Positions 14,224 through 34,787 are shown, counted from the stretch's first letter. The stretch is DNA of 64,000 nucleotides from Candidatus Poribacteria bacterium (GCA_022823085.1 JAJDXV010000021.1:393-64392); one strand, 5' to 3'. Notes: generated from the letters alone by a model not told the origin. Numbers and translations are program-made.

Positions 14224-14231
14224 CTTCCTTT

Positions 14232-18102: not shown

Positions 18103-21075
18103 CTAATTGGGCTGTTCGTCGGTATTAGTTGAACCGGTGATCGCTTCATTCCAATCCCACAAAAAGATTGTGCCGTCCTGTCCGGTACTAACCAGCGTTT
18201 CACCATCAGGCGAAAATTTTAACGTCTCCACTTGCTGCGTGTGCCCGTCAAGCGCAGCGATTCTCTCGCCAGTCTTGACATCCCATAATAGGATTGCACC
18301 GTTGGTATGTCCACTGAGACAAATTGCGCTATCTGGTGAAAATACCAACAGTTTTGGTGAATCATGCAATATCCGCCAACCGCGTTGATGCACAGTGCTG
18401 ACCGAAAAAAGTTTATGACCCGTACGCACATCCCATAAATGGAGTCGCGTGTGTGTCCCCGCAGCGAGCACGGCGCGGTCGGGTGAAAACGCCAATGCCG
18501 AAATCCGTCCCAGATTCTTTGTTCGTTCTGCAAAGACAACTAAGGGTTCACCGGTCGCAACGTCCCACATTCGGATGTGTCCATCTGCAGTACCACTCAC
18601 AAGCCATCTACCATCTGACGAAAACGCCATTGCCAAAACCACTGGTAGATTGCCGCGAAAGCCGGGTTTCAAGTCATCATTATCATCATTAACAGGAATT
18701 ATCAATTCAGTGCCTGTTTCCGTATGCCACAAACGAATGTCAAGCATGCTATTAATCGCTACAGTTTTAGTTCTATCGTCAGGAGAAAAAAGGAGTTTGC
18801 GGCTCCCACGCTGCAACGTCGCAAGTTCGTCTCCAGTCGATACATCGGTCAACCGAATTAGATCATCTGGCTTCGTAGCAGAGAACCCAGCAGGGTACCC
18901 ACTGAAAACGACAGTACCATCTGCCGCTACACTGACGAGTTTCGTGCCATCCGGCGAAAACGCCACTGCTGAATACCAATCCCGATGTCCGCTATTTTGG
19001 ACAGCGGACTTTTGCGCTGTGTCCGTATCCCAAAAGGTAATTTCACCGTTAAACGCCGTACTAACAAGTGTGGAACTGTTTTGCCCACTGTCCTGAAAAA
19101 AGGTCGCCGCTTTTATGGATTGTGTGTGTCCAGTGATAAGATTATCAAGCGGTGTCCCGGTCTCTATATCCCAGAACCGGATTGTGCCATCCGTACTTCC
19201 GCTGACGAGTGTACGACCATCGGGTGAAAATGCTAACGCAGCAATACCGTTGATATGTCCGGTGAGTGTCGCGATCGGTTCACCATGCGTCGTGTCCCAC
19301 AATTGAACTGTTTTATCCGTGCTGCCGCTGGCAAGCGTTTTTCCATCGGGTGAAAACGCCAGGACATTTGTCGCGCCAGTATGTTGCTGCAGTAGCATCG
19401 AATCCCTGTCACCAGTCGTATTCCACAATCGGACTGTCGTATCTGGACTGCCACTTGCCAGACGCGTGCCATCCGGCGAAAACGCCACTGCTAAAACCCG
19501 ATTTTTTTTGAACATGCGCTGCACAGGTTTATCCAACGGCTGAAGCGGCAAATCTATGTGTCCTCTGAGCGTCGATAGCTTTTTACGGGTTGCTACATCC
19601 CACAACTGGATCATCCCGTCCTGTTTTCCAATCGCGATTCTATCGTTCGTCATCGCGTAAACACCCTGAAAATCCTCCGAACTAAAGAGACCGATCCCGA
19701 ATAACCCAGTTTTAAGGTGCTTGGTTTTCCCTTTCCCGTTCTCAATATTCAATCGGGTAATTGCAGCATGCCCGGAACCATACAAACCGATAAGCGTTTT
19801 TCCATCTGAAGAGAATCGCAGGACGGAAGCATCCGCGTACAAGTCAATAAGTGGCACTTCGCGCTCGGTCGCGATCTCCCACAATTGGATGAGCGTATCA
19901 TCAGAAGAAGCGGTAAGGAAACGACCATCCGGTGAAAAACTGAGGGCTTCACACACACCGCTACCAAACAAAGATTTCTCCTCACCTGTTTCCACATCAT
20001 ACAGCCAGACCCCGATAGTGCTACCGACTGCAAGTAGGGTACCATCCGGTGAAAACTGAATTGCGGTAATCCCACCTTTCCCGAAGCGCGCTTCCGCCGC
20101 TTTGGGCAACTTCCAATGTGCGTGGTTCTTAGATGTCTCATCTGATTCTGCTTCTGCAACCGATGCCGAAACATCGTTAGGCGGCTGGCTTGCCGTATCC
20201 CCCTCGCTCGGTGTACTAACATTTCCGAGTTGCGTCCGAATATCTGGTTTGGATTCAAGATTTAGCACAACAGCTGCCTCAACGAGCTCAACTGTCATCT
20301 CTGATGGCGCGTCGAAACTATACGGCTTTTGGAAACGCGACAGGTATTGGTGGTTGCCGATACCTAACATCAAAAGCACGACTGCCAGTGTGGAAACACC
20401 GACTGCCCACGGCACTAACGGCTTGCTGCTTGATGGTGCAACCGGCTTCAGACGTGAGACCTCTTGCATGATGTTCTCTGTGAGATTCGGTGAGATTTGG
20501 AAATGGTCGAGTGCTTCTCTAATCATCGGTTCCTCCTCTTTTAAACGGTTCCGCGCACGCCTCAGACGACTTTTAATGGTGCTCGCCGATACGCCTAAAA
20601 ATCGGCTAATATCTTCAACTTTCATCTCACCAAGATAGTAGAGTGTCATTACTGTGCGTTCACTCTCTTTCAACTTCGCGAGCAATTTCTTGACCACCTC
20701 GCGTTGTGATTCCGCGACAGTCTTTGTCCGTTCCGCTACAACGTGTCGGGAATAAGCATCTTCTTGTATCATCGTTGCGTCTGTGCCCTCCAACGGTTGT
20801 GTTTGTATCCGTTTTTTGCGAAGCCACGTGGCGCATAAGTTTGCCGTAATCACATACAGCCACCCAGAAAACTGGTTCGGGTCCTTCAGTGTTGAGAGTC
20901 TCTGGTACACTTTCAGAAAAGCGTCTTGCGTGATGTCCTCAGCGATATGGAAATCCCCAACTTTTCGCCAAGCGAGCGCATGAACCGGCTTTTGATATTT
21001 ATTCACAAGTTCGGCAAAAGCCCTTTCATCACCAGCGAGAACACGTCGAACAATCGCAACATCGTCATTTTTCAT
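18103..21075 (-). CDS. ECF-type RNA polymerase sigma-70 factor fused via a TM segment to WD40 repeats
   Basis: Region 2 AEDITQDAFLKVY..FSGWLY and region 4 ISRFLGVSASTIKSRLRRAR, then a hydrophobic segment, then many AFSPDG...SGS.D.T.RLWD repeats. Confidence 0.92.
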   Translation of the reverse strand: MKNDDVAIVRRVLAGDERAFAELVNKYQKPVHALAWRKVGDFHIAEDITQDAFLKVYQRLSTLKDPNQFSGWLYVITANLCATWLRKKRIQTQPLEGTDATMIQEDAYSRHVVAERTKTVAESQREVVKKLLAKLKESERTVMTLYYLGEMKVEDISRFLGVSASTIKSRLRRARNRLKEEEPMIREALDHFQISPNLTENIMQEVSRLKPVAPSSSKPLVPWAVGVSTLAVVLLMLGIGNHQYLSRFQKPYSFDAPSEMTVELVEAAVVLNLESKPDIRTQLGNVSTPSEGDTASQPPNDVSASVAEAESDETSKNHAHWKLPKAAEARFGKGGITAIQFSPDGTLLAVGSTIGVWLYDVETGEEKSLFGSGVCEALSFSPDGRFLTASSDDTLIQLWEIATEREVPLIDLYADASVLRFSSDGKTLIGLYGSGHAAITRLNIENGKGKTKHLKTGLFGIGLFSSEDFQGVYAMTNDRIAIGKQDGMIQLWDVATRKKLSTLRGHIDLPLQPLDKPVQRMFKKNRVLAVAFSPDGTRLASGSPDTTVRLWNTTGDRDSMLLQQHTGATNVLAFSPDGKTLASGSTDKTVQLWDTTHGEPIATLTGHINGIAALAFSPDGRTLVSGSTDGTIRFWDIETGTPLDNLITGHTQSIKAATFFQDSGQNSSTLVSTAFNGEITFWDTDTAQKSAVQNSGHRDWYSAVAFSPDGTKLVSVAADGTVVFSGYPAGFSATKPDDLIRLTDVSTGDELATLQRGSRKLLFSPDDRTKTVAINSMLDIRLWHTETGTELIIPVNDDNDDLKPGFRGNLPVVLAMAFSSDGRWLVSGTADGHIRMWDVATGEPLVVFAERTKNLGRISALAFSPDRAVLAAGTHTRLHLWDVRTGHKLFSVSTVHQRGWRILHDSPKLLVFSPDSAICLSGHTNGAILLWDVKTGERIAALDGHTQQVETLKFSPDGETLVSTGQDGTIFLWDWNEAITGSTNTDEQPN

Positions 21076-21370: not shown

Positions 21371-22252
21371 ATGACAAGAGAAGAGATTATCCGCAGATTT
21401 AAGAGCCTACGTATATGGAAAAGCAGTGGTGAGAGAGCCCCTCACAAACCTTTACTGACCCTCTACGCTATCGGTAGATTGCTACATGGCGAAAATCGGC
21501 TTATTTCATATAGCAATGACATAGAAGACAACCTTACCAATCTGTTGAGAACTTTTGGCCAAGAACGTTCAAACGACCAACCGCACTTACCGTTTTGGAG
21601 GTTGCAAAATGACAAGGTTTGGGAGGTAACTGATGCCGACAGAATTAACGAAACTACAAGCGGAGATCCGTATATAACGGACTTGAGAAACTACAACGTC
21701 TCTGGTGGTTTCCTTGAGGAAATAGTACATGAGTTTCAAATAGATGCTAATTTCGCTTTTAAAATAAGTCAATATATGCTAGACCATTTTCCAGCTTCGA
21801 TGCATCAAGAAATTTTACAAGCTGTTGAAATTCCAACCTTCGTAATTGAGCCTCAACCTCCTAATCCAAACTTTCAATCAGATGTTATGAACGCTTATAA
21901 GGAAAAATGTGCTGTCTGCGGTTTTCGCATCAGACTTGAAAACCAACCAATCGCTTTGGAAACTACGCACATCAAACCACCTGAAGCAGGAGGGCCCGAT
22001 GCAGAAGAAAACGGTTTAGCTCTCTGTTCTCTACATCATGAACTGTTCAACAAAGGGGCTTTTACGCTATCTGAGAATCTGCATGTATTAGTGTCCAAGC
22101 ATACCAAGGGAAAAGGAACAGGGGATTGGTTGAAAAAATTTCACGGAGAAAAGATGAAATTTCCACCACACCAAATCTATTATCCTCGCATTCATTTCAC
22201 AGACTGGCACTTCAAAAATAGATTTAGAGGACCAGCCCGCGAAAAAATTTGA
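21371..22252 (+). CDS. SBD-HNH endonuclease (phosphorothioate-binding restriction endonuclease-like)
   Basis: N-terminal APHKPLL and PFWRLQND resemble the sulfur-binding domain. C-terminal CAVC...HIK...NGLALCSLHH is an HNH motif. Confidence 0.8.
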   Translation: MTREEIIRRFKSLRIWKSSGERAPHKPLLTLYAIGRLLHGENRLISYSNDIEDNLTNLLRTFGQERSNDQPHLPFWRLQNDKVWEVTDADRINETTSGDPYITDLRNYNVSGGFLEEIVHEFQIDANFAFKISQYMLDHFPASMHQEILQAVEIPTFVIEPQPPNPNFQSDVMNAYKEKCAVCGFRIRLENQPIALETTHIKPPEAGGPDAEENGLALCSLHHELFNKGAFTLSENLHVLVSKHTKGKGTGDWLKKFHGEKMKFPPHQIYYPRIHFTDWHFKNRFRGPAREKI

Positions 22253-22278
22253 CATCTAAAACACAATTGTGCTAAAAT
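22249..22278 (+). promoter_or_regulatory. Sigma70-type promoter upstream of the ssp-like operon
   Basis: TTGACA-18 bp-TAAAAT with a TG extension; palindrome CACAATTGTG in the spacer. Confidence 0.6.
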
Positions 22279-22366
22279 CTAAGTTAATATTGAATAAATT
22301 GGACTTTCGCATTTCAATTTAAGATACAATTAAATCTGACATTTTAATACCTAACCAGTAAACGCA

Positions 22367-22690
22367 ATGAAAAATCGAAATATAAAAACTGCTACTAATA
22401 CACTCCATGGACCTGATGACAATTGCCACGTCCGGAAATTCTTCGCGTCCTTTTCGTCCTTACGTTCATTAGGCTTGAACATTAACAAGCCAGTCCTTGC
22501 CCCCCCCCCCCACTTTACAAACAATAAGTATTTTAGATTAAAAAAACATTCACGGCATTTAGCAATGCTCCGCGTCCGCGCGCCATCTCGGACAATGGCA
22601 TCCGATGCGGGGTTTTTTGTTGTCATATCTGCTGTTGTTACGTCAATTTTTCCCCCCATACCTCTATTCGCGCCAGGGGGTGAAGTTTGA
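22367..22690 (+). CDS. Putative leader ORF (107 aa) containing a C12 homopolymer
   Basis: Its stop TGA overlaps the sspB-like TTG start (TTGA). C12 lies at 22500-22511. No clear Shine-Dalgarno sequence and no recognisable domain. Confidence 0.35.
   Translation: MKNRNIKTATNTLHGPDDNCHVRKFFASFSSLRSLGLNINKPVLAPPPHFTNNKYFRLKKHSRHLAMLRVRAPSRTMASDAGFFVVISAVVTSIFPPIPLFAPGGEV
22568..22618 (+). terminator. Intrinsic terminator-like hairpin in the 5' leader of the ssp-like operon
   Basis: CTCCGCGTC pairs with GATGCGGGG (two G-U pairs); inner GCCAT/ATGGC stem; followed by T6. Confidence 0.55.
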
Positions 22691-23658
22691 GCAACACACG
22701 TACCATCCTCCCCCAGATAATTACACCATCTTTCTCAGGACATCAGACCTTCCCGTTTCGATATACGTGGCTGAAGAAGGGGATCGATGCTGTCGCAGCA
22801 GATCCGAACATCTTCTCCTCTGAAAACGCCTCGGTTACTTTAGGTGTCGGAAAAAACATGGTGAGCTCCATCCGACATTGGTGCCGTGTATCACGACTCA
22901 TTGAAGAGGGAACAGGTCAACCTACGCAAGTCACTATGCAGCTCAGTGAAAAGGGAACAGTCTATCGCCGCGGGCAATTCGCACCTACGCAGCTCGGCAG
23001 TGCCATTTTTGGCGAAAACGGATTCGACCCATACCTTGATGACCCAGCGACTTTGTGGTTGATTCATTGGCAAATCGCGACCAATACCACTCAGGCGACA
23101 GCATGGTACTGGGCTTTTAACGTTCTAAGAGGGAATCAATTCACACCCCCTATATTCACACGAGAAGTGTATAAATGGGCACAACAGCAGAAACAGTCTA
23201 TGCGACCTGTCTCCGACAACACACTACGGCGGGATGTCAATTGCTTTATCCGAACCTACTGCCAGTCGCGTTATAGTGATACCGTTGCTGAGGAAACTTT
23301 TGACTGTCCACTCGTTGAACTCAACCTAATTGCCGAATTACCAGACAGCGATGGCTATGAATTCCAGCGCGGCGACAAAGAGACATTACCGATTGAAGTC
23401 GTCGCATGGGCATTAGACACGTTTTGGAAAAATCGCTTCTTCTGGAGAGAATCGCTTACGTTCTCAGATTTGATGTACGCACGCGCGAGTCCCGGACGGG
23501 TTTTCAGGTTAGATGAAGATACAATGACGACCTATCTCGAAGACCTCGAGCAACTCACGGACGGCGCACTGCAATACGATGAGACAACAGGTCTAAAGCA
23601 GCTATATCGACATAGAAATTTAGATCAGAGGAGACTTTTAAAGAGGTACTATGAATAA
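22687..23658 (+). CDS. DUF4007 family protein (SspB-like)
   Basis: FSGHQTFPFRYTWLKKG, LGVGKNMVSSIRHW, DPYLDDPATLWLIHW and CPLVELNLI; lies upstream of an ATPase and a PAPS-reductase gene. Confidence 0.85.
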   Translation: MSNTRTILPQIITPSFSGHQTFPFRYTWLKKGIDAVAADPNIFSSENASVTLGVGKNMVSSIRHWCRVSRLIEEGTGQPTQVTMQLSEKGTVYRRGQFAPTQLGSAIFGENGFDPYLDDPATLWLIHWQIATNTTQATAWYWAFNVLRGNQFTPPIFTREVYKWAQQQKQSMRPVSDNTLRRDVNCFIRTYCQSRYSDTVAEETFDCPLVELNLIAELPDSDGYEFQRGDKETLPIEVVAWALDTFWKNRFFWRESLTFSDLMYARASPGRVFRLDEDTMTTYLEDLEQLTDGALQYDETTGLKQLYRHRNLDQRRLLKRYYE

Positions 23659-26600
23659 CGTTCCGTTATCAGACATTTTTCATATTACAAAACGCTTTCA
23701 ACGCTCTGTGCATTTGGTACGGGATTTTTATACTGAAAACGCCTTAGACGGGTACGTTGTGACTGTCAAGGCGCGGGAAACCCTTACCCGTCTAATTTCA
23801 GCACAGGAGAACAGTGCAACATCAAAAGCATGGTCTCTTACCGGTCCTTATGGGTCAGGAAAATCAGCGTTCGCGCTTTTCACTGCGAAAGTCCTCGGGG
23901 ATCCAGCTGCTCCGACAACACAACAAGCTTTAGAATTACTACAGCGTGGAGACCCCTCACTCTATGAACGATTTATCAGCATAAGCGGGAACGGCAGGAG
24001 AATATCATCAGGTTTTTGTCCGGTCCTAATCTCTGGTGAACGCGCACCAATTACGCGGGCACTCCTGCAAGGATTAGAACACGGGCTTAAAACCTTCGGT
24101 ATATCCTCACGGCACTCGCTTCAAAAAGACATCCAAGAACTCTTGAAAACGGGAGCAAACGGCAATCCCCCACAGGCAACTGAAATCACAAAACTTTTTG
24201 AAGACGCAACACGTGCTATTAAGAAAAAAGCTGGACACGGTTTGTTACTTGTCATTGATGAACTTGGAAAATTCCTCGAGTACGCTGCACAACACCCCGT
24301 ACAAGACGACGTATTTGTTCTACAAACCCTCGCCGAATTTGCCACACGAAGCAAGCAAACACCATTCTTTTTAATCACGATTCTTCATCAGGCTTTTGAA
24401 CAATACGCAAACAAAATCGCCAAATCACAACGCGAGGAATGGGCAAAAATCCAAGGCCGGTTTGAAGACATTGCTTTTGTAGAACCTGCTGAGCAGGTAC
24501 TCCGATTGATCGGATCCGCTATCCAACATAAGATGGAAATCCCGTCTACACCCATCGAATCAAACCTCAAACCTAACCAACTGTCCGACGAGAAAGAATT
24601 TAGTGAACTCATCAGAACCTGTTTGCCACTCCACCCAATAGTTGCACTTATTGTAGGCCCTATCTTCAGACGCTTCGCACAGAATGAACGTTCCCTCTTC
24701 GCCTTTCTTAATTCAAGTGAACCTTATGGGCTACAAGACTTTCTCAAAAACAAACATTACAATGGAGGCGCACCGCCGATGTTTTCGGTCGCCGATCTCT
24801 ATGATTATCTCAACACTACTATAGGAAATCGGCTCTCCGCTGCACGCGACGGTGATAAGTGGATCGAGATTGAGATGGCTATTAACCGACTGACAGACCC
24901 AGCACCGATACTCGTTAAACTCATTAAGACGATAGGACTGTTCAGTATCATCGGAGAGGTGAGTACGAACTTGAAAGCCTCAGAACGTATACTTCATTAT
25001 GCCTTAAATGACCACACATCGGAATTCAATCAGGAATTTGATACCGCACTAAAGACACTGGAAAAACGTTCAATTGTTACCTACCGCCGCTACAATGATG
25101 TCTATGCACTCTGGGAGGGAAGCGACATTGATATCGAGAGGTTGTCTTACGAAGCGGAAGGACACCTCGATCCGAACGAGACACTTACGAATTATTTGTC
25201 AAAATTGACATCGCCGCGGCCCCTGATCGCCCGCCGACACCTATTTGAGAAAGGCACGCTCCGCTATTTTGAGGTTCGGTACACCGATCTCGAAAACTTT
25301 GATGCGAATCTGAGTGAACCGCTCGGTGATGCCGACGGGCTGGTGCTTTATGCCCTACCCGCAGGTGAAGATGAAGTAAATCAGTTCGCCGAAAAAGCGA
25401 ATGAAAAAGACACCACAGAACGTCAAAACGTGCTGATCGGTATCCCACACGCCACCCGTTTTCTCCGCGATGCCGTCACTGAACTCGCCTGCCTACACTG
25501 GATTTCGGACAATACGCCCGAACTCGAAGGGGACGCGGTGGCGAGACGTGAACTTTCAATCCGATGGGTCGCAGCAGAACGGGATGTCGCTGATCAATTA
25601 GCAAAGATTTTCGGTGGCGACAGCGATGAACCTTGTAGATGGTTTCATAAGGGACAAGAGATAGATATCAATTCGCAACGCGCAAGAAACGAGTATCTAT
25701 CGGAAATCTGTGATACGGTTTATCACAAGACTCCACTTATTCGGAACGAACTCATTAATCGACGGAAAATCTCTGGCGCAGTAACGACTGCACGAAAGAA
25801 ACTTATTCAAGCGATGCTTGAAAATAGCGATCAAGAGAACCTCGGTATCACCGGTTATCCTGCCGAAATGAGTGTCTATCGCTCACTTCTTTCAGAGACA
25901 GGCATACATCGCGAAAATGTAGGGGTGTGGGGTTTCTATCCTCCGAAAATAGATGATAAAAACCAGATAATACATACATGGAAAGCGATTGAGGCTTTTC
26001 TCGATGCATCTGAAAGTGAACGACAACCTGTCGTGAAACTCTATGAAACTTTGATGAATCCGCCACTCGGTGTTCGGGAAGGTCCACTTCCGATCCTCCT
26101 ATGTGCTGTGATGCAGCACTACAAAACAGAAATCGCACTCTATGAAAACGGGTCCTTTATAGCAGATTGGTCCATGCCAGTTTTTGAAAGGTTTCTTAAA
26201 GCACCGCAACTATTTGAATTGAAACGGTTTCGGATAACTGGAGTCCGTTCGGATCTGTTCTCTCAATTTTTGGGCGCATTTAAGCAACCCTCAGAAATTC
26301 AAACGCCTGATCTGCTAACAGTCGTTACACCGTTAATACAAACGATTGCGCAACTGCCGAAATATACTTTGACAACCCAGGAATTGAGTGATAACGCAAA
26401 GAATCTCCGTAAAGTTGTCTTGAATGCACGTGAACCTGACGAACTCCTCTTTAAACAGTTACCGGAAGCGTTCGGGTTCTCAGATTTTGGTACAGAGGCA
26501 GCAACAAGTACCGAAGCAGTATCGGAATTCTTTGGTATACTACGGGATGCACTGTCCGAATTGGAAAAGGCTTATGAGGTTTTGCTGAATTTCATCGAGC

Positions 26601-27130
26601 AAATGCTGGTAGAAGCCTTCACCTTAAAGCCATTAAGGAAAAATCCCCGTGCGGATTTAGTCGAAAGAGCGGAACCGCTGATAATGCTAACAATTGAGAT
26701 GGACCTTAAAGGGTTTTTAGTCCAAGTCTGTAGCGGTGGACACGATTTCAGCAGCTGGCTTGAGGCAATCGCGACCTACCTCGCGAAAAAACCGCCGTCA
26801 ACGTGGTTAGACACTGATAAAGTGCAATTTGAAAGCAATCTCGCGCAACTTGCAAGGAAATTCAGGCATTTTGAAGCGGTGTCTTATGAAAAGGTAGCAC
26901 ATACTACATCATCAACAAGCGAACCCATCCGAGTCGGTATCACAACACCGAATCGAACCGAACAGGAACGAGTGGTTACATTGACACCGACAGCTGATGC
27001 ACAAACGACTGAAATGGAAAACGAGATCAGAAAAGTATTCGACAAGTTTGACATAGACGATAACCCAGAACTCCATATCGCAATCTTGGCGCGAATTTCA
27101 CAAATGTGGATGCAGCAACTCGATGAATAG
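23651..27130 (+). CDS. Large P-loop ATPase (SspC-like)
   Basis: Walker A GPYGSGKS, Walker B LLVIDELGKFLE, EWAKIQGRF and FAQNERSLF; overlaps the upstream gene by 8 bp. Confidence 0.85.
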   Translation: MNNVPLSDIFHITKRFQRSVHLVRDFYTENALDGYVVTVKARETLTRLISAQENSATSKAWSLTGPYGSGKSAFALFTAKVLGDPAAPTTQQALELLQRGDPSLYERFISISGNGRRISSGFCPVLISGERAPITRALLQGLEHGLKTFGISSRHSLQKDIQELLKTGANGNPPQATEITKLFEDATRAIKKKAGHGLLLVIDELGKFLEYAAQHPVQDDVFVLQTLAEFATRSKQTPFFLITILHQAFEQYANKIAKSQREEWAKIQGRFEDIAFVEPAEQVLRLIGSAIQHKMEIPSTPIESNLKPNQLSDEKEFSELIRTCLPLHPIVALIVGPIFRRFAQNERSLFAFLNSSEPYGLQDFLKNKHYNGGAPPMFSVADLYDYLNTTIGNRLSAARDGDKWIEIEMAINRLTDPAPILVKLIKTIGLFSIIGEVSTNLKASERILHYALNDHTSEFNQEFDTALKTLEKRSIVTYRRYNDVYALWEGSDIDIERLSYEAEGHLDPNETLTNYLSKLTSPRPLIARRHLFEKGTLRYFEVRYTDLENFDANLSEPLGDADGLVLYALPAGEDEVNQFAEKANEKDTTERQNVLIGIPHATRFLRDAVTELACLHWISDNTPELEGDAVARRELSIRWVAAERDVADQLAKIFGGDSDEPCRWFHKGQEIDINSQRARNEYLSEICDTVYHKTPLIRNELINRRKISGAVTTARKKLIQAMLENSDQENLGITGYPAEMSVYRSLLSETGIHRENVGVWGFYPPKIDDKNQIIHTWKAIEAFLDASESERQPVVKLYETLMNPPLGVREGPLPILLCAVMQHYKTEIALYENGSFIADWSMPVFERFLKAPQLFELKRFRITGVRSDLFSQFLGAFKQPSEIQTPDLLTVVTPLIQTIAQLPKYTLTTQELSDNAKNLRKVVLNAREPDELLFKQLPEAFGFSDFGTEAATSTEAVSEFFGILRDALSELEKAYEVLLNFIEQMLVEAFTLKPLRKNPRADLVERAEPLIMLTIEMDLKGFLVQVCSGGHDFSSWLEAIATYLAKKPPSTWLDTDKVQFESNLAQLARKFRHFEAVSYEKVAHTTSSTSEPIRVGITTPNRTEQERVVTLTPTADAQTTEMENEIRKVFDKFDIDDNPELHIAILARISQMWMQQLDE

Positions 27131-27142
27131 AGAGGTGAAAAG

Positions 27143-27985
27143 ATGGCAGAAAAAATCCGCCACGTCCTTGGACTCTCCGGTGGTAAAGACAGCTCAGCAC
27201 TCGCCGTTTATATGCGGGATAAGGTACCGGAGATGGAATACTTCTTCTCTGACACCGGCAAGGAATTGCAGGAGACTTACGATTTTTTGGATCGGTTAGA
27301 GGCATTTCTCGGCAAACCGATTGTACGTCTCAATATGAACGCCGATGCCAACAGTAACCGCGATTTCGATCATTGGTTGACGGTCTACGGTGGGTTATTG
27401 CCGTCGTCTCAAATCCGCTGGTGTACCGTCAACTTGAAAATACGACCTTTTGAGGAATACATCGGCGAAGATCATGCGTATCACTACATCGCCATCCGTG
27501 CCGACGAAGATCGCATCGGTTACAAGCCGCCGAGCATCTCCTCTCTCAATAATATCGAACCCAAATATCCGTTCAAAGAGGACGGCATTACAAAAGAAGA
27601 TGTCTACCGAATACTCGAGGAGAGCGGACTCGGTCTGCCCGACTATTACAAGTGGCGGACACGTTCCGGTTGTTACTTCTGTTTCTTCCAACGTAAATCC
27701 GAGTGGGTCGGACTGTTAGAACAGCATCCAGACCTTTTTGAACTCGCCAAGCAATACGAGAAACCGAACCCTAACGCCAAGACAGGAGAAGTATTCACAT
27801 GGTGTCAGGATGAAAGTTTAGAGGAATTATCGCAACCGGAACGGGTTGCAGAAATCAAGGCAAACACTGAAAAGGCGATGGCATCCAAGAAAGCCGCAAA
27901 ACCGAACCGTCGTTTAATAGAAATCCTCACCGATGTCCTCGACGACGAGGATGACGAGGAACCCTGCTTGCCTTGTCATAAGTGA
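27143..27985 (+). CDS. PAPS-reductase-family protein (SspD/DndC-like)
   Basis: PP-loop SGGKDS, RWCT, RSGCYFCFFQ and an acidic tail ending CLPCHK. Confidence 0.88.
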   Translation: MAEKIRHVLGLSGGKDSSALAVYMRDKVPEMEYFFSDTGKELQETYDFLDRLEAFLGKPIVRLNMNADANSNRDFDHWLTVYGGLLPSSQIRWCTVNLKIRPFEEYIGEDHAYHYIAIRADEDRIGYKPPSISSLNNIEPKYPFKEDGITKEDVYRILEESGLGLPDYYKWRTRSGCYFCFFQRKSEWVGLLEQHPDLFELAKQYEKPNPNAKTGEVFTWCQDESLEELSQPERVAEIKANTEKAMASKKAAKPNRRLIEILTDVLDDEDDEEPCLPCHK

Positions 27986-28031
27986 GATCAAATAACTTAT
28001 CAGTTATTGGAAAAGATAACGAATAATTGAA

Positions 28032-28481
28032 ATGGGATATATTATGCGTCACGGTTGGACACTTGAAAAACAAGAGTGGGATATTTTACCACAAGTCATA
28101 GAGGGCACAAGTTGGTCAAAAACAAAGTTAGCCCAACTTTATCGGGACCAGGTGCCTAAACGTTCAGGGGTCTATATTATTTGTGTTAAGATACCTCATT
28201 TCAATCAATCGCCTTTTAAATCACTATACAATGTCATTTATGTTGGAAAAGCCGATAGAGGCACACTATATGACCGTTTTCTCTATCACTGCAACAATCC
28301 AAAACCAGAACTCGTGTTGGCGAGACAATGTTTTGGTGATAATCTCGAATATTGGTACACTGAGGTAAATCCTGATCAGGTACAGGAGCTCGAAGCACGC
28401 CTGATAGGATGCTTTGGCCCACCGGCAAATCTCAAACAGGAAAGTATTCCTGCCAAGACTGCAGAAGGTCGTCCTGCTTGA
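28032..28481 (+). CDS. GIY-YIG nuclease family protein
   Basis: SGVYII...IYVGKA...LYDRF..H...ELEARLI...PPAN. Confidence 0.8.
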   Translation: MGYIMRHGWTLEKQEWDILPQVIEGTSWSKTKLAQLYRDQVPKRSGVYIICVKIPHFNQSPFKSLYNVIYVGKADRGTLYDRFLYHCNNPKPELVLARQCFGDNLEYWYTEVNPDQVQELEARLIGCFGPPANLKQESIPAKTAEGRPA

Positions 28482-28513
28482 TGTTTACTAACTTTGAAAT
28501 ATAGTGGAGGATT

Positions 28514-29956
28514 ATGCTAATGAATTTATATCCAGCTTTACGATCAAAAATGGGTGAATGGAACTACTACGTCGTGAAAATGAGTGCCCGCGAATTGGCT
28601 GATAATGTCCAACTTGCATCCGCTGTGTATGACGAAAACATTCTTGATGAATCAATTCAACGGACTTTAGACGAAGAAATTCAACGCACATTACGAGAAA
28701 CCAGAGTTTACAAAGAGATTGTAGAATATTTAAAACGTCAACCGTATCGATTCTTTTCTTCACTTGTTGTAGCTGCACTTGAAGGAAACCCTATGTTCTA
28801 TCCAGTTGAGATCACAGAAGATCCACAATTTGTCATTTTTCGTGATGACCAACGACTTAATGAGGCGTTTGGCCTTTTGAAGTTTGATGGAACGCAGAAA
28901 TATTACGCTTTAGATGGTCAACACCGATTATCAGCGATCAAGACGCTATTAGACCGAACTAATTCATTGTCTGACGGGGCACCTGAAGATTTTGAAAATG
29001 ATGAGTTTTCTGTCATAGTTGTTGTACCAAGTCAAGCGGATTCCAATCAAACGTTCATGCAAAAGTATCGGCGATTATTCACAAACCTCAACCGCTATGC
29101 CAAGAAGACAGACAAAGCAACAGATATTATGATGGATGAGGACGATACATTTGCTATTCTCACAAGGCAGCTAATAAATAAAAACGACTTCTTTAAATCG
29201 CCCGAGGGAAGACAAAAGGAGTCAACGCGGATTAAAACAAAAAGCAAAAACCTCTCGGTTAACGATCCGCATTTTACTAGTCTTGAGACCTTGTATGAAA
29301 TGAATATTGCTTTGCTAAAATCGGAACAGAGAGAGACTATAGGATGGGGACCCATCAGTACTGAAGGCGAGAATGAAAACACCTTCAAAAGGTTCCGTCC
29401 ACCCGAGGAATACGTTGAAAGTCTCTACAGCGAATTGGAAATGTATTGGAACGCCCTGTTAGCAGAGCTCCCTGTGCTTCATAATGAACCTACTACCAAA
29501 ATGCGGATCCATGAACTCCCTGATGCGGAAACCGAGGATGGAACTGATCATCTATTGTTTTGGCCTATTGGACAGCAAATGCTAGCAGAAATCGTGAGAA
29601 CGTTACTTGACAAACGCCTTCCTGATCCCGAAAATCCTACTCCTGACGCAGTCCGCGAGACTTTAAGCGGACTTAACCAACTAGAATGGCGGCTTCACCA
29701 CGCACCGTGGCGTTATTTTTTATTGATTCGTTCAGCGGCAAATCGCTGGAATATGCGGAGCGAAGAGAGAGCAAAGGCAGTCCGGTGTGGACGGATCATT
29801 CAACAGTGGATCTTGGGATTGGAAGAACTTGACGAAAGTAGAGTTGAACGGTTAAAAAAAGATTGGGCAGGTTTCCTAATTCCGGCGCAACCTGAAGAGG
29901 AAATCAACATGATGTGGCAACAGATTGAACAGATGAAAGTCTCTATATCTGGGTAA
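28514..29956 (+). CDS. DGQHR-domain (DndB-like, ParB/Srx superfamily) protein, paralog 1
   Basis: IQRTL, RFFSSLVVA, YALDGQHRLSAI and RRLFTNLNRYAK; GGAGG ribosome-binding site. Confidence 0.88.
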   Translation: MLMNLYPALRSKMGEWNYYVVKMSARELADNVQLASAVYDENILDESIQRTLDEEIQRTLRETRVYKEIVEYLKRQPYRFFSSLVVAALEGNPMFYPVEITEDPQFVIFRDDQRLNEAFGLLKFDGTQKYYALDGQHRLSAIKTLLDRTNSLSDGAPEDFENDEFSVIVVVPSQADSNQTFMQKYRRLFTNLNRYAKKTDKATDIMMDEDDTFAILTRQLINKNDFFKSPEGRQKESTRIKTKSKNLSVNDPHFTSLETLYEMNIALLKSEQRETIGWGPISTEGENENTFKRFRPPEEYVESLYSELEMYWNALLAELPVLHNEPTTKMRIHELPDAETEDGTDHLLFWPIGQQMLAEIVRTLLDKRLPDPENPTPDAVRETLSGLNQLEWRLHHAPWRYFLLIRSAANRWNMRSEERAKAVRCGRIIQQWILGLEELDESRVERLKKDWAGFLIPAQPEEEINMMWQQIEQMKVSISG

Positions 29957-30024
29957 TTCGTTTGTAATAGAGCATTTTAAGAGGTTTAGGGATATTTCCC
30001 ACAACTTTCAGCCATATACTATAG

Positions 30025-30180
30025 TAACCCAAGTTGCTACTAATGGGTCTTGGGCGTTTCAACACGGTTTTCAGGCCTTTCCCCACCCCAGAGGGGTGAT
30101 ATATCTATAGAAAACAGCGTATTTAACCGCTTGCACTCCAGCGGAGTGCTATGTGTATAAACAGGTGGCAACTTGCGTTA
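30025..30180. mobile_element. MITE-like element
   Basis: Terminal inverted repeats TAACCCAAGTTGCTAC / GTGGCAACTTGCGTTA. Confidence 0.55.
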
Positions 30181-30292
30181 TAGTAAAGTCAAGAATTAAA
30201 AAGACATTTTAGTGATTTCCGAGACCAACCCTCGTAGGGGCGAGGTCCCCTCGCCCGCTGTGAAGTGTCTCATTAATTATGAGATCCACTAT
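30180..30292. mobile_element. MITE-like element (ATAGT...ACTAT family) carrying an internal GTAG REP-like palindrome
   Basis: Imperfect inverted ends; GTAGGGGCGAGGTCCCCTCGCCC at 30234-30256. Relatives lie at 38642-38760 and 62620-62721. Confidence 0.55.
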
Positions 30293-30331
30293 AAATGCTG
30301 ATAACGAAAAAATCATCAACCCTAATGGAGT

Positions 30332-31777
30332 GTGACGCTTATGAATGTTTATCCAGCTTTACGTTCACAAATGGGTACGTGGGACTATTATGTCGTCAAA
30401 ATGAGTACCAGTGAACTAAGTCAAAATGTGAAGTACGCTTCCGAAGTTCATGATGACCGTACTCTTGACAGAGCGATTCAACGACGATTAGATGAAAGTA
30501 GGGTCAAAAAAGATATTGTAGAATATTTGAAACGCCAACCAAATCGCTTTTTTTCGGCAATTGTTGTTGCTGCACTTAATGGAAATCCACGATTCTATCC
30601 AGTTAAGATGACAGATGACCCGCGATTTGTCATTTTTCGGAATGATCCGAGGTTTAGTGAATCATTTGGCGTTTTGGAGTTTGATGGAACACAGAAGTAC
30701 TATGCCTTGGACGGTCAACACCGTTTATCGGCAATCAAAACACTTTTGGATCAAAGTAACTATTCATCTTCTGATAGCATACCCGAAAACTTCGAAAACG
30801 ACGAAATTTCTGTCATCGTCGTCGTGCCGAGCAATGAAGATTCTACTGAAACTTTCATGCAAAAGTACCGTAGACTCTTTTCTAATCTCAATCGCTATGC
30901 TAAACCGATGGATCAGGCAACGAACATCATTATGGACGAGGACGATACATTTGCTATTCTCACGCGACGATTGATTACGGATCATACTTTCTTCCACTCA
31001 GATGTTGAAAGACAATTGGAATCAGAGAAGGTTAAAACTTCAAAGGGCAAAAACCTTAGGACTGGAGATTCATATTTTACCAGCATTGAAACACTATATG
31101 AAATGAATATTAAATTGCTGAGTTCCTCAAAAAGAGTATCTATAGGGTGGGGGCCAGGCAGTAAGGAAGGGCCGGATCTGCAAACCTTTAAAAAGTTCCG
31201 TCCACCTGAGGAATATATTGATAGTTTGTATAACGAATTATTGATGTACTGGGATGGATTACTTGCAGAACTTCCGATTCTTCGCAGCGATCCGATGAAA
31301 ATGCGCTTCCACGAAATTACAGATAAAACAGACAAAGAGGGAACAGATCATTTGCTGTTTTGGCCCATTGGTCAACAAATGCTAGCAGAAATAGCACGGA
31401 AGTTGCTCAACGACCGACTTTCGGCCCCAGAGCATCCTATCGCTGACACTGTGCAGTATGCGTTACAAGGGCTCGGTCTACTGGAATGGAAACTTCACCA
31501 AGCTCCATGGCAATATTTCCTATTAATCCGGACCATGACGCGTACAGGCAAGTCCAAATGGGTAATGCAAAGCGGGGCAAACCGGACTAACGCAGTTAAT
31601 TGTGGTAGTCGAATTCAACAATGGATTCTCGGTTTGAAAGACAACAACGACAAAGACTTTAAGCCTGAGATTCTTAAACGCGAATGGAAAGGATTTCTGA
31701 CCCCCGCCCAATCTGATGAAACAGTTGATGAACTATGGCAACAAGTTGAGGATAGGAAATCTGCTATGGCCTGGTAA
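30332..31777 (+). CDS. DGQHR-domain (DndB-like) protein, paralog 2
   Basis: YALDGQHRLSAI; colinear with and highly similar to 28514-29956. Confidence 0.88.
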   Translation: MTLMNVYPALRSQMGTWDYYVVKMSTSELSQNVKYASEVHDDRTLDRAIQRRLDESRVKKDIVEYLKRQPNRFFSAIVVAALNGNPRFYPVKMTDDPRFVIFRNDPRFSESFGVLEFDGTQKYYALDGQHRLSAIKTLLDQSNYSSSDSIPENFENDEISVIVVVPSNEDSTETFMQKYRRLFSNLNRYAKPMDQATNIIMDEDDTFAILTRRLITDHTFFHSDVERQLESEKVKTSKGKNLRTGDSYFTSIETLYEMNIKLLSSSKRVSIGWGPGSKEGPDLQTFKKFRPPEEYIDSLYNELLMYWDGLLAELPILRSDPMKMRFHEITDKTDKEGTDHLLFWPIGQQMLAEIARKLLNDRLSAPEHPIADTVQYALQGLGLLEWKLHQAPWQYFLLIRTMTRTGKSKWVMQSGANRTNAVNCGSRIQQWILGLKDNNDKDFKPEILKREWKGFLTPAQSDETVDELWQQVEDRKSAMAW

Positions 31778-31930
31778 GTTACCAGTAATGATGTTTTTCA
31801 ATAGATATAATTATAGTTTGGACAATTTCTATGAGACGAATGCCCAATTTTCAAAGCATTTCCGATTTTTCTCTAAGTCTTTCACACAAATACAACTCGT
31901 AGAAAATAGATCCGGATGTGCGAAAGAACA

Positions 31931-32006
31931 GCCCCAGCGGGGCGAAATGTCTATAGAAACGCCATGTGCCCCAAGGTCTAAGCCCCAGCGCGGCGAAATG
32001 TCTATC
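31931..32006 (+). repeat. Two direct copies of GCCCCAGCG(G/C)GGCGAAATGTCTAT
   Basis: Copies at 31931 and 31983; related motifs at about 30087 and 30134. Confidence 0.6.
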
Positions 32007-32047: not shown

Positions 32048-33193
32048 TTATTTTTTTTCGGTTAGTCGTCTCGATATCTTTGGAATTTCCTTCAAATCGG
32101 GGAGAACGAAAGTCTCACAGCCGCATTCAAGTTTATGGTATTGCCAGTATGAATTAAGTGGTATAGAATCGTAACGCATCTTTTGAAAAGTGTTATGGGT
32201 GCCATCGATATCAACCATACGTATCCAGCCAGGTTTGTCGGGTTCCAAAATTCTATATCTCTGAATACTTGGATCAAGCGCGAATTCGTTATGAATATGA
32301 CCATAGACATAACGATTAGCAAACCTATGGGAAATACCAACCAGCATCCATTCTGGGTCGCAATTCGGACAATGTATTGGATTGCCAATAGTATGCGCGG
32401 TTTCGCCCCTCCTTTTATCAAATAATCGATACATCTTCTGCACCACTTCAAGGATATCTGGAGCATCTATGAGATAGAGACTTTCTGCCTGCTCTCTAAT
32501 AGCAGTAGGAATACCGTGTAGTGCTTCAGCAATGGGACCAGCAATAGCAGCAAGGGTGTCTGAATCACCACCTAAAGATATCGCATTACGCACAGCATCT
32601 TCAAAATTCTTCGACTCCAAAGCACACGTTATCGCTTGAGGGACTGTTCCCTTGCTGGTCATATCAAAAGCATAGTCAGGGCGAATCTCGTCCACAGCCT
32701 GAGTTAAATCATAGTCGTATTCAGTGGCAATAACTTGACGAATGTCCATAGGATCCTGGCCCTGAAACGCGAGCCAAATAGCGTGTGTTGTCGCGCGCGC
32801 GCCTTTCATACCTTCCGGATGATTGTGTGTTAGCTCAGTCACCACATCGGTGGCAGTTAAAGCAGCACTCAAACTACCTCGATTCAGGAATGCCGCTGGA
32901 GAAACACGCATTGCCGCACCATTTCCGGAACTTTGGTATGGCTTAGGAATATCAGAATTGATCCACTCTTTAAATTTTCCACTGTTGAGTTTGGGATAAC
33001 GGCGGCACCACGCCTGCATCGTTGTCGCTGGTTGACGGTCGTTCAATAGAATATCAGCAACAGCAGCAGTGCACACTGTGTCAATTCTAAAATGACAAGC
33101 ATCACTAAAGAAGATAAATTCTTTGGTTTTAATTCGCTCCCGTTCACGATAATAAATAGAACCCACAATGTTCCCTATAATCGCCCCTAACAT
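32048..33193 (-). CDS. ADP-ribosylglycohydrolase (DraG/ARH) family protein with an altered active site and a Cys-rich C-terminal extension
   Basis: MLGAIIG start after an AGGAG RBS; SGNGAAMRVSP, THNHPEG and GGDSDTLAAIAG; tail contains CPNC...HKLECGC. Confidence 0.85.
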   Translation of the reverse strand: MLGAIIGNIVGSIYYRERERIKTKEFIFFSDACHFRIDTVCTAAVADILLNDRQPATTMQAWCRRYPKLNSGKFKEWINSDIPKPYQSSGNGAAMRVSPAAFLNRGSLSAALTATDVVTELTHNHPEGMKGARATTHAIWLAFQGQDPMDIRQVIATEYDYDLTQAVDEIRPDYAFDMTSKGTVPQAITCALESKNFEDAVRNAISLGGDSDTLAAIAGPIAEALHGIPTAIREQAESLYLIDAPDILEVVQKMYRLFDKRRGETAHTIGNPIHCPNCDPEWMLVGISHRFANRYVYGHIHNEFALDPSIQRYRILEPDKPGWIRMVDIDGTHNTFQKMRYDSIPLNSYWQYHKLECGCETFVLPDLKEIPKISRRLTEKK

Positions 33194-33500
33194 ATTTTCT
33201 CCTTTTATTTTTATGCCTTCAAGTTTATGAAGTGCCAACCTTTATTTGCACCAAAAAATCAGTAAAGTTAAGACAAGTTTTGTTTCTCAAATTCGACAGA
33301 TGTGTCAAATACTTTAACGCTGAGTGAGGACGTTTCTATTTACACACCTGTTCGATAAAATGACCGAGGCGTGTTTTAACTTCGTTATACCCTCATATCA
33401 CTGAGATTTTTATTATATCACAATTTTAATTTGGACAGTGGTCCAAGTTTCCAATGGCAGTACACCTCTTAACTTACCACTTATAACTCAAAAAACACCT

Positions 33501-34040: not shown

Positions 34041-34787
34041 ATGAGTATAGAGTCTATCTATCCGTTGATTCCAGATCATGAAGCCTTACTGGCATTTGAA
34101 CCAGAAGAATTAGCTGGTATTATTTTGGAATATTTTAATTCTAGGGGCACCAAAGGAAAAAGAGTAGTGGTAAGTTGTTACGGTAATTTCATTTCACCAG
34201 AAGCACTAAGAAATTACCCTAGTGGATATGAAGATGATATCCGCGATGCTCTTGTAGAGGCATTGGTGTGGCTGGAAAATGAGGGACTTATAGCACAAGA
34301 CCCCCAACAAAACAGCAGGCACTGGTATTTCATCACGAGACGCGGACGCACATTAGAAGATAGTACTGCCGTAGAAGCCTATCGAAAAGCAAACCTATTA
34401 CCCAAAGGACTCCTTCACCCAATAATGGTTGACAAAGTCTATCCTCTATTTTTGCGGGGTGCTTATGATACTGCTGTATTCCAAGCCTTCAAAGAGGTAG
34501 AGATAACAGTTCGCGAAGCAGGAAAGTACGCTGAAGAAGATTGTGATGTCGAATTGATGAAAAAAGCATTTGACTCTCAGACAGGAAAACTGACCGACAC
34601 AACTCAAACAGAGGATGAAAAACAAGCTACATCCGCTTTATTTATTGGGGCTATGGGTTTATACAAAACTCCCCCCTGTCATCGAAATATAAACTTTACT
34701 GCTGAGAGAGCAGCAGAAGCGATTATTTTCGCGCACCACTTGTTCAAGATTGTTGACTCTAGCACATCAGCATCAACCGCACCATAG
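34041..34787 (+). CDS. TIGR02391 (Ymh-like) family protein
   Basis: LLAFEPEELAG N-terminus; LLHP...YDTAVFQAFKEVEITVR...LMKKAF...LFIGAMGLYK..CHR; GGAGG RBS. Confidence 0.75.
   Translation: MSIESIYPLIPDHEALLAFEPEELAGIILEYFNSRGTKGKRVVVSCYGNFISPEALRNYPSGYEDDIRDALVEALVWLENEGLIAQDPQQNSRHWYFITRRGRTLEDSTAVEAYRKANLLPKGLLHPIMVDKVYPLFLRGAYDTAVFQAFKEVEITVREAGKYAEEDCDVELMKKAFDSQTGKLTDTTQTEDEKQATSALFIGAMGLYKTPPCHRNINFTAERAAEAIIFAHHLFKIVDSSTSASTAP

Follow-up and report, generated by a model that had tools for sequence, protein, structure and literature searches.

The stretch of DNA analysed here (64,000 nucleotides of a Candidatus Poribacteria bacterium, GCA_022823085.1 JAJDXV010000021.1:393-64392; hereafter the window) contains between positions 22687 and 31777 six genes, all on the + strand, for SspB, SspC, SspD, a small GIY-YIG nuclease of 145 amino acids (aa) and two DGQHR (DndB-family) proteins (Table 1). 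Candidatus Poribacteria are sponge symbionts. The subject of this analysis is the 3′ part of the array, where the GIY-YIG gene is followed by a DGQHR gene: the two form a real, conserved, unnamed two-gene unit with obligate pairing, which is found beside both Ssp and Dnd writers of phosphorothioate (PT) DNA modification. A preliminary description, made from the sequence alone, had already set out the co-oriented array and had equated its DUF4007 protein, large ATPase and PAPS reductase with SspB, SspC and SspD. This was correct: family profiles match throughout the array, the three proteins give full-length PADLOC matches and belong by their PADLOC and Pfam profiles to the Ssp writer (SspBCD), and the SspD translation shows the PP-loop motif SGGKDS. 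The genes for SspB and SspC overlap by 8 bp; the gaps that follow are 12, about 50 and about 35 bp, and 375 bp lie ahead of the second DGQHR gene.

Table 1. Features of the ssp locus in the window, the six genes of the array first, with the evidence for each (E-values unless bits are given; ORF, open reading frame).
Feature	Position	Strand	Evidence
SspB (DUF4007)	22687..23658	+	Pfam DUF4007 3.3e-87, full profile; PADLOC SspB 1.8e-96
SspC (BrxC-like P-loop ATPase)	23651..27130	+	PADLOC SspC E=0, residues 13-1076 over profile 2-1053 of 1054
SspD (PAPS-reductase-family PP-loop ATP pyrophosphatase)	27143..27985	+	PADLOC SspD 7.9e-115, profile 1-277 of 277; Pfam PAPS_reduct 1.4e-8
Small GIY-YIG nuclease, 145 aa	28044..28481 (ORF opens 28032)	+	Pfam GIY_YIG_2 1.2e-6, 29.1 bits (cut-off 22.4)
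DGQHR protein 1 (DGQHR-1; DndB-family, probable ParB/Srx-fold N-terminal domain)	28520..29956 (ORF opens 28514)	+	Pfam DndB 2.6e-35; TIGR03187 100.2 bits (cut-off 58.85)
DGQHR protein 2 (DGQHR-2; paralogue of protein 1)	30332..31777	+	Pfam DndB 1.7e-30; TIGR03187 104.7 bits (cut-off 58.85)
Spacer with two 25-nt hairpin-type repeats (30084-30108, 30134-30158)	29957..30331	.	Repeat family D3, four copies
Second pair of 25-nt repeats (31930-31954, 31981-32005), end of the duplicated 1.8-kb unit	31930..32005	.	Repeat family D3, same offset after DGQHR-2
SBD-HNH nuclease (sulfur-binding wHTH domain, SBD, plus HNH), family 'phosphorothioated DNA-binding restriction endonuclease'	21371..22252	+	NCBIfam NF045808 269.5 bits (cut-off 180); Pfam HNH_2 3e-9
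Spacer between HNH gene and sspB, with promoter-like site (22249-22278) and doubtful 107-aa ORF (22367-22690)	22249..22686	+	Consensus match; ORF family scans

The start of the GIY-YIG protein was taken at the methionine at 28044, as in its homologues. The protein falls within the GIY-YIG (URI) superfamily, its GIY and YIG motifs reading GVY and YVG, and was matched by no PADLOC or NCBIfam model. The best Foldseek matches of its AlphaFold model (pLDDT 75.9) are the GIY-YIG domain of UvrC (1ycz; probability 1.00, E 1.7e-3) and R.Eco29kI. Among 43 homologues with 26–56% identity to the window protein, G42, Y44, Y66, G68, R78, F79, E117 and N129 are invariant and H82 is nearly so. A word-indexed search gave 51 clusters at ≥52% identity, all unnamed, and a profile search of 1.84 billion representatives gave 608 clusters (formed at 50% identity) at E ≤ 1e-3 and 284 at E ≤ 1e-10, with members that are nearly all 140–170 aa long and match end to end. 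Among longer proteins the profile had two matches, a 281-aa protein and UvrC, and no fusion to a DGQHR domain, which is weak evidence of absence. Judged by its sequence the protein belongs to a real nuclease family and is predicted to be catalytically intact and under selection.

By score and by the presence of the DGQHR pentapeptide, both DGQHR-1 and DGQHR-2 are members of the DGQHR domain family (TIGR03187, Pfam PF14072). They fail the DndB equivalog TIGR03233 (57.2 and 48.8 bits; cut-off 328) and also Pfam GmrSD_N/DUF262 (17.9 and 21.6 bits; cut-off 33.2), with which only the ParB/Srx fold is common; in PADLOC they have a weak DndB match only. The NCBIfam family 'DNA phosphorothioation-associated DGQHR protein 1' (TIGR04172) was considered and rejected, all tested paired DGQHR proteins reaching 21–37 bits against a cut-off of 450. 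The proposal in the preliminary description that DGQHR proteins share the ParB/Srx superfamily with the N-terminus of SspE agrees with a comparison of folds: in a structure model (pLDDT 68.4), residues from about 10 to 195 align in VIA-align with PadC (Z 6.5), KorB (6.2), sulfiredoxin (6.0), Pnob8 ParB (5.6), SspE (4.8) and BrxU (4.3). Z scores of 4.3–6.5 are middling, yet they agree with the sequence family, and the N-terminus probably has the ParB/Srx fold. Foldseek with the whole model found nothing at E ≤ 0.001 (BrxU, E 0.06), and a profile search of the PDB gave no match at E ≤ 10. In 52 distinct relatives D134, G135, Q136 and the FxxxN motif are always retained, H137 in 50 and R138 in 51. 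An acidic DEDD cluster at positions 208–211 is kept in 49–52 of the 52; it is missing from the one canonical DndB compared.

The window GIY-YIG protein matched 42 places in 176 genomes of the phylum, and the 20-kb contexts of 12 strong ones were compared (G112 and the G095 fragments were excluded because their contigs are too short). A DGQHR gene directly follows the GIY-YIG gene in all 12 of these Poribacteria loci and, in the same order, in the one related locus from Candidatus Latescibacterota. A scan of metagenomes with an alignment of 11 GIY-YIG sequences yielded 22 loci (GIY-YIG protein 30–42% identical; L084 and L086 have identical layouts), each with a DGQHR gene immediately downstream. 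Weaker GIY-YIG matches (L018–L032) revealed a second, more distant kind of pair, here called type B as opposed to type A of the window, with a GIY-YIG protein of about 160–180 aa and a DGQHR protein of about 420 aa; again the DGQHR gene is adjacent in 15 of 15 loci. Seven plasmid records were found by tblastn with DGQHR-1, and the three alphaproteobacterial ones examined all have the pair: small 'hypothetical' genes that overlap the DGQHR start match the GIY-YIG profile (hhalign 92.6%, 96.4% and 91.1%, E 1e-6 to 1e-9). In L116 and L127 a candidate third, still more divergent pair is located ahead of 622–628-aa DndB-domain proteins (hhalign 77.5%, E 1.9e-5). In a phage collection there were two weak DGQHR matches only, neither with the pair. 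Co-folding of DGQHR-1 with the GIY-YIG protein gave a score of 0.05 (mark 0.32), which says nothing either way on contact. The Latescibacterota GIY-YIG and DGQHR proteins are 64% and 67% identical to those of the window, but its SspB and SspC only 29% and 26%. Because the pair is so much closer to that of the window than the writer proteins are, it appears to be exchanged modularly and to be horizontally mobile.

That sspBCD together with the pair should recur in other genomes, as the preliminary description supposed, was indeed found. The gene sspD is in the same locus as the pair in 11 of the 12 Poribacteria loci and in 17 of the 22 metagenome loci (the other five comprise four short or truncated ones and L093, whose 5 kb of upstream sequence are free of sspD); sspBCD also accompanies the pair in Latescibacterota and on plasmid pROLI83 of Roseobacter litoralis, where the order is sspA-B-C-D-GIY-DGQHR. 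The only type-A locus without sspBCD, L038 of genome G110, has the motif DGQYQ instead of DGQHR and retains the GIY-YIG gene and an SBD-HNH gene; in G110 (90% complete) there is no SspD match at E ≤ 1e-20, and DndC is present. All 15 genomes with the window's type of pair thus have a writer, 14 of them SspD and G110 DndC.

The pair is by no means confined to Ssp writers. On pTi of Rhizobium K1/93 the order is GIY-DGQHR-SspF-SspG-SspH, convergent with sspA-B-C-D (PADLOC SspF 4e-237, SspG 1e-217), on plasmid pRspNXC14a of Rhizobium NXC14 it is GIY-DGQHR-methyltransferase-dndB-C-D-E-dndA, and the Latescibacterota locus continues with PbeA (PADLOC 2e-195) and PbeC (2e-49). In the 20-kb contexts of 15 type-B pairs on long contigs, DndC/D/E are adjacent to the pair in six, PbeA-like plus PbeC-like genes in three, SBD-HNH homologues in seven and SspBCD in two (one with SspF/G). 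At least one PT gene, be it of the Ssp, Dnd, Pbe or SBD-HNH kind, is found in 14 of these loci, and none within 20 kb in the fifteenth, L104. In L035 and L043 DUF262-HNH genes stand between sspD and the GIY-YIG gene; therefore, the pair coexists with an SspE-like architecture. The view of the preliminary description that the locus is an Ssp variant in which the pair substitutes for SspE can thus be kept in part: sspBCD with the pair recurs, and no SspE is adjacent in the window. An Ssp-specific replacement of SspE is too narrow in view of the Dnd, Pbe, sspFGH and DUF262-HNH neighbours, and the SBD-HNH gene upstream of sspB had been missed.

Which genes directly follow sspD was surveyed in 20 Poribacteria SspD loci; they were chosen, not at random, on long contigs of genomes in which no type-A GIY-YIG gene matched strongly. 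The genes after sspD are PbeA plus PbeC in seven loci, SBD-HNH in seven (L121, L122, L125 and L128–L131), DUF262-HNH in one, type-B pairs in two, the candidate third pair type in two, and GHKL/MORC-like ATPases in several. In other loci the slot of the pair is taken by nucleases that are known to depend on PT or are likely to do so, which is the main argument for an effector role; the pair is probably one of several interchangeable add-on cassettes after sspD.

In the 176 genomes of the phylum SspD was found in 123, DndC in 64, any DGQHR-family match in 57 and canonical DndB in two; a GIY-YIG match with the window protein was found in 35 and the window's type of pair in 15. In three families of the phylum phosphorothioation appears to be near-universal. 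The genome of the window, G000, itself has DndC (TIGR03183, 570 bits) and DndD on another contig (C173, locus L064), and thus has both Dnd- and Ssp-type writers. No DGQHR-family gene was found in G000 besides the two in the window.

Other genes recur around these loci. The GHKL/MORC-like ATPases (Pfam HATPase_c_3, 565–823 aa) are unnamed, have weak MzaB-like PADLOC matches only and, often with a 162–164-aa partner, lie between sspD and other cassettes (L119, L120, L126, L127, L132, L133, L043, L044). Beside the DGQHR gene of the non-sponge metagenome loci L076, L077, L080, L084/L086, L087, L090, L091 and L093 there is a ZorD/DpdE-like SNF2 helicase (509–596 aa; PADLOC 1e-62 to 1e-71), accompanied in three metagenome loci by a 768–797-aa protein with a sigma70-region-4-like helix-turn-helix. 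An ORF of about 220 aa without a family is situated between sspD and the GIY-YIG gene in four metagenome loci.

The two DGQHR proteins of the window are 65% identical. The DNA has direct repeats of 300 and 202 nt, 73–75% identical and spaced 1797–1800 bp, and the twin genes represent a 1.8-kb unit duplicated in tandem. In a quick maximum-likelihood tree each copy is in its own clade (SH-aLRT 100 and 95), and each clade also contains single-copy loci of other genomes; therefore, the duplication is old, with later losses. The preliminary description had taken the twin genes for a property of the system, which does not hold: two copies are present only in the window, L036 and L037 (three of 13 related Poribacteria loci). 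The idea that the twins are separate readers for Ssp and Dnd modification was dropped, no association being seen: DndC is present in two of the three twin genomes (G000 and G152, not G141) versus 8 of 12 single-copy type-A genomes. The 25-nt hairpin repeats after each copy are G+C-rich, with the core CCCCAGCGGGGC, translate as PQRGEMSI in the ORFs that cross them, and are possibly terminators or, alternatively, small mobile repeats.

The SBD-HNH gene mentioned above is directly upstream of, and co-oriented with, the ssp operon. The N-terminus of its product matches sulfur-binding domains in the PDB (phmmer; ScoMcrA 5zmm 1.1e-8, SprMcrA SBD 7cc9 1.6e-4); its HNH domain matches TagI, and the HNH His/Asn/His motif is present. 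Of the residues reported to recognize sulfur in these domains, HR/HK and YP (PMC7461809), the first reads HK and the second LP; in homologues the position of the sulfur-cavity tyrosine is variable (Y, F, L or D). Homologues of SBD-HNH adjoin the pair in five of the 12 type-A loci and in seven of the 15 type-B loci. In the window and L033–L035 they are upstream of sspB, whereas in the seven sampled loci named above they come directly after sspD. Because a survey found such PT-dependent enzymes to be rarely coupled to dnd clusters (PMC7461809), their frequent coupling to PT loci in Poribacteria is worthy of note. The window protein is a candidate reader-nuclease of the ssp locus. In the spacer before sspB a promoter-like site TTGACA-18-TAAAAT (11/12 matches, with TG) is a consensus match only, 30 such sites having been found versus 18.5 ± 4.6 expected. 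The 107-aa ORF in this spacer was rejected as a small regulator; it has no Pfam, PADLOC or NCBIfam match and a low atlas recognition score (1244), is probably not a gene and was treated as non-coding.

As the preliminary description had stated, other known partners are lacking in the window: none of its 48 longest non-overlapping ORFs, all scanned with Pfam, matched the families of SspA, SspE, SspF/G/H, PglZ or BrxL. No protein exceeded the Pfam cut-offs for DUF262/DUF1524, and the PADLOC scan, which covered only the 16 ORFs at 14–38.6 kb, found no SspE and no SspF/G/H, although the same SspF/G/H models match the genes of Rhizobium K1/93. The five DUF262 genes of the genome are all on other contigs. 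Likewise, no cysteine desulfurase is encoded among the 48 ORFs, and at least four strong genes of this family (Aminotran_5) are found on other contigs, as had been presumed. The stretch at 20–38 kb has a G+C content of 41–46% as compared to about 50% in the flanks, which carry housekeeping genes, e.g., for MnmG, GidB and galactokinase; therefore, the stretch is regarded as an island. An ADP-ribosylglycohydrolase gene (32048–33238, −) comes directly after the DGQHR-2 gene, with an 89%-identical copy at the same place in L034, and genes for a Hypoth_Ymh protein (34041–34787, +) and a TIR-domain protein (34832–36037, +; PADLOC PDC-S66, 4e-17) follow further on; these are likely other defence genes of the island. 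At the island edge a 990-aa WD40 beta-propeller protein is encoded (18103–21075, −), the first 175 residues of which give weak CARF/Csa3-like PADLOC matches (E about 0.004), and a 1349-aa ORF at 14013–18062 (+) matched no Pfam or PADLOC family.

We consider it about an even bet (probability near 0.5) that the pair is an optional effector module of phosphorothioate systems, composed of a sensor (the ParB/Srx-fold NTPase) and a nuclease. What the sequences and models show is which genes are present, that their pairing is obligate, that the catalytic and motif residues are conserved, which folds the proteins have, and that the pair is placed like known PT effectors; that the DGQHR protein senses PT, that the two proteins are in contact and that they function in defence we infer. 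The SspBCD operon would write PT, the sulfur probably coming from a cysteine desulfurase encoded elsewhere, and would carry at its 3′ end an optional, mobile module of a GIY-YIG endonuclease and a DGQHR protein, the latter being duplicated here. The DGQHR protein would be a nucleotide-binding DNA protein that reads the state of the DNA (PT-marked or not) and then licenses or restrains the GIY-YIG nuclease, by a logic as in SspE, DndI and the two-gene GmrS/GmrD, although its nuclease is not related to theirs. The module would act together with further PT-linked nucleases, for instance the upstream SBD-HNH protein, and would not replace them. A bolder version, which is possible and is put forward only tentatively, is that the pair represents a writer-agnostic class of PT 'reader-cutters' that plug into Ssp, Dnd, Pbe and SspFGH systems, with DGQHR as nucleotide-switch PT sensor and the repressor DndB as a nuclease-less offshoot of that family.

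It should be noted that a number of observations weigh against an effector module and lend weight to other explanations. The genomes with SspD (123) greatly outnumber the 15 with the window's type of pair; therefore, SspBCD does not need the pair. In 3 of the 12 related loci the GIY-YIG gene is broken while the DGQHR gene is open (in L042 it is split by a DDE transposase ORF, in L043 and L044 there are in-frame stops). In L131 of genome G024 the order is sspD, SBD-HNH, type-A DGQHR (496 aa), the GIY-YIG gene being absent and SBD-HNH standing in its usual place, which may be a swap of the nuclease partner. Such persistence of DGQHR would fit a role of the protein as a DndB-like regulator of the PT writer, repressing its transcription or limiting PT density in the manner of DndB in dndBCDE systems, with the GIY-YIG protein as a co-factor, e.g., in nicking or processing at modification sites; modification would be tuned and nothing restricted. 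This is the main rival explanation and in our opinion a doubtful one. It can invoke that the DGQHR proteins are in the Pfam family of DndB, the only characterized DGQHR protein and an experimentally shown repressor of dnd transcription (PMC4507180). The scarcity of canonical DndB relative to DndC (2 versus 64 genomes) means that DGQHR proteins paired beside DndCDE could be local DndB equivalents; type-B pairs are directly beside DndC-DndD-DndE in 6 of 15 loci, and G000 has no DGQHR-family gene outside the window. On the other hand, a pure transcription regulator would not need a nuclease partner whose catalytic residues are all invariant in 43 diverse members. The pair on pRspNXC14a adjoins a dndBCDE cluster with its own annotated dndB, and that of Rhizobium K1/93 heads the restriction operon sspFGH rather than the writer operon. 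The low equivalog scores (49–57 bits versus 328), the lack of the DEDD cluster in the one canonical DndB compared, and the nucleases that otherwise fill the slot of the pair also speak against regulation.

Also among the adverse points is that 5 of the 35 pair-bearing genomes (G113, G118, G120, G123 and G144; all type B and 92–97% complete) have neither SspD nor DndC, their PAPS-reductase matches being CysH-like only or absent; the pair is thus less strictly tied to a writer, let alone to Ssp, than the preliminary description assumed. The DGQHR motifs are intact in both writer-less loci checked (L104 and L106), and therefore at least type B can persist without a writer. This would fit a self-sufficient, PT-independent defence nuclease, a split GmrSD-like ParB NTPase plus nuclease that merely accumulates in the same defence islands, as would L104 and L093 with their lack of neighbouring PT genes and of sspD, respectively, L078, where two divergent pairs are the sole content of 5.5 kb, and the TIR, Ymh and ADP-ribosylglycohydrolase genes in the window island. 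We regard this as unlikely: in most loci of several phyla and environments (11/12, 17/22, plus L047 and pROLI83) the pair comes immediately after sspD and is co-oriented with it, a PT gene is present in 14 of the 15 longer type-B loci, which is far more specific than island co-location, and the sole type-A locus without sspBCD has a degraded motif. Least probable of all is a type IV-like restriction in which the pair and SBD-HNH attack foreign DNA with PT in a sequence context other than that of the host. It would be useful where most community genomes write PT, and invaders marked with PT should be frequent, given SspD in 123 of the 176 genomes; SBD-HNH enzymes have been reported to cut PT-DNA (PMC7461809), their homologues are beside the pair in the window and in the type-A and type-B loci counted above, and writer-less genomes retain the pair with SBD-HNH, e.g., in L106. 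Yet most pair loci lack SBD-HNH (none was recognized in the 22 metagenome loci, the flanking ORFs of which were scanned for only part of them), the host has two PT writers, which makes self-targeting hard to avoid, the coupling of PT-dependent enzymes to dnd clusters is rare according to the survey cited, and the sulfur-cavity tyrosine is variable. Finally, it has been proposed that URI/GIY-YIG nucleases in Dnd neighbourhoods, often at the border or on the opposite strand, are indiscriminate backup effectors (Rakesh, Aravind & Krishnan 2024, PMC10853773), which weighs against the effector module proposed above.

The pair bears on two questions left open by the literature, namely what accompanies most sspBCD loci, which are without a known restriction partner, and what the DndB/DGQHR family does beyond one repressor. 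In a published count neither sspE nor sspFGH accompanied 2,211 of 2,678 sspBCD loci, a share given there as 83.9%, and its authors anticipated more restriction partners (PMC8092258). Being conserved, widespread and associated with PT writers of both kinds, the unit of GIY-YIG and DGQHR genes offers a specific and cloneable candidate for one more PT-linked effector; it would also point to a function of the DndB family that needs a nuclease. If the reader-cutter interpretation is true, the pair accounts for part of the loci without a known partner. The slot after sspD in Poribacteria is at the same time a map of modules that compete or cooperate with one writer. Homologous cassettes are found on plasmids of culturable Roseobacter and Rhizobium, and the hypothesis can thus be tested without the uncultured sponge symbiont.

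No description of the pair, or of its coupling to Ssp, was found in the literature, and there is no PADLOC or NCBIfam model for it; as expected from the preliminary description, the cassette does not correspond to a ready system model, PADLOC having none for the GIY-YIG protein and only the weak DndB match for DGQHR. Several known systems are comparable in part. SspFGH, PbeABCD and DndI, the last described as a PT-sensing ATPase-nickase (PMC11662687), are optional cassettes coupled to a PT writer, and the pair is found in equivalent positions and co-occurs with SspF/SspG and PbeA/PbeC. However, they have no sequence relationship to the pair, which is known from its genes alone, whereas those modules are supported by experiments (PMC8092258; PMC11662687). 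The URI/GIY-YIG nucleases of Dnd neighbourhoods fit the type-B pairs beside DndCDE, but they are treated as stand-alone, and pairing with DGQHR and Ssp loci are not described in that source's account of Dnd neighbourhoods (PMC10853773).

With DndB of dndBCDE (Salmonella enterica Cerro 87, Streptomyces lividans) the paired DGQHR proteins share Pfam PF14072, the motifs DGQHR, QR and FxxxN, and the linkage to PT modification genes. They differ in being about 120 residues longer, in always having a GIY-YIG gene, in the DEDD cluster, and in their position, which is 3′-terminal in the writer operon or 5′-terminal in a restriction operon rather than first in the writer operon; in the quick tree their clades are far from the one canonical DndB. 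The type IV enzymes GmrS/GmrD and GmrSD/BrxU likewise combine a ParB/Srx-fold NTPase carrying a DGQ[QH]R motif with a nuclease, BrxU being among the structural matches (Z 4.3). GmrS, whose DGQQR motif has been related to the DGQHR domain, and the nuclease GmrD are reported to be encoded by separate or fused genes (PMC4619093). Unlike the window pair, these enzymes have a His-Me/HNH nuclease, and GmrSD targets modified cytosines; by sequence the window proteins are not members of these families.

Another close parallel is SspE of the SspABCD-SspE systems from Vibrio cyclitrophicus FF75 and E. coli 3234/A, which has been called the equivalent of DndB (PMC10853773). In the window SspE is lacking, sensor and nuclease are in separate genes, the nuclease is of the GIY-YIG rather than of the DUF1524/HNH type, and the pair extends beyond Ssp loci. 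What the two have in common are the same writer genes for full-length SspB, SspC and SspD and the architecture of the effector: in SspE a ParB/Srx-fold NTPase (DUF262, DGQQR motif), to which the N-terminal domain of DGQHR aligns (6jiv; Z 4.8, 126 residues), is joined to a nuclease. By analogy the logic would also be the same, a nucleotide-switch sensor controlling a nuclease.

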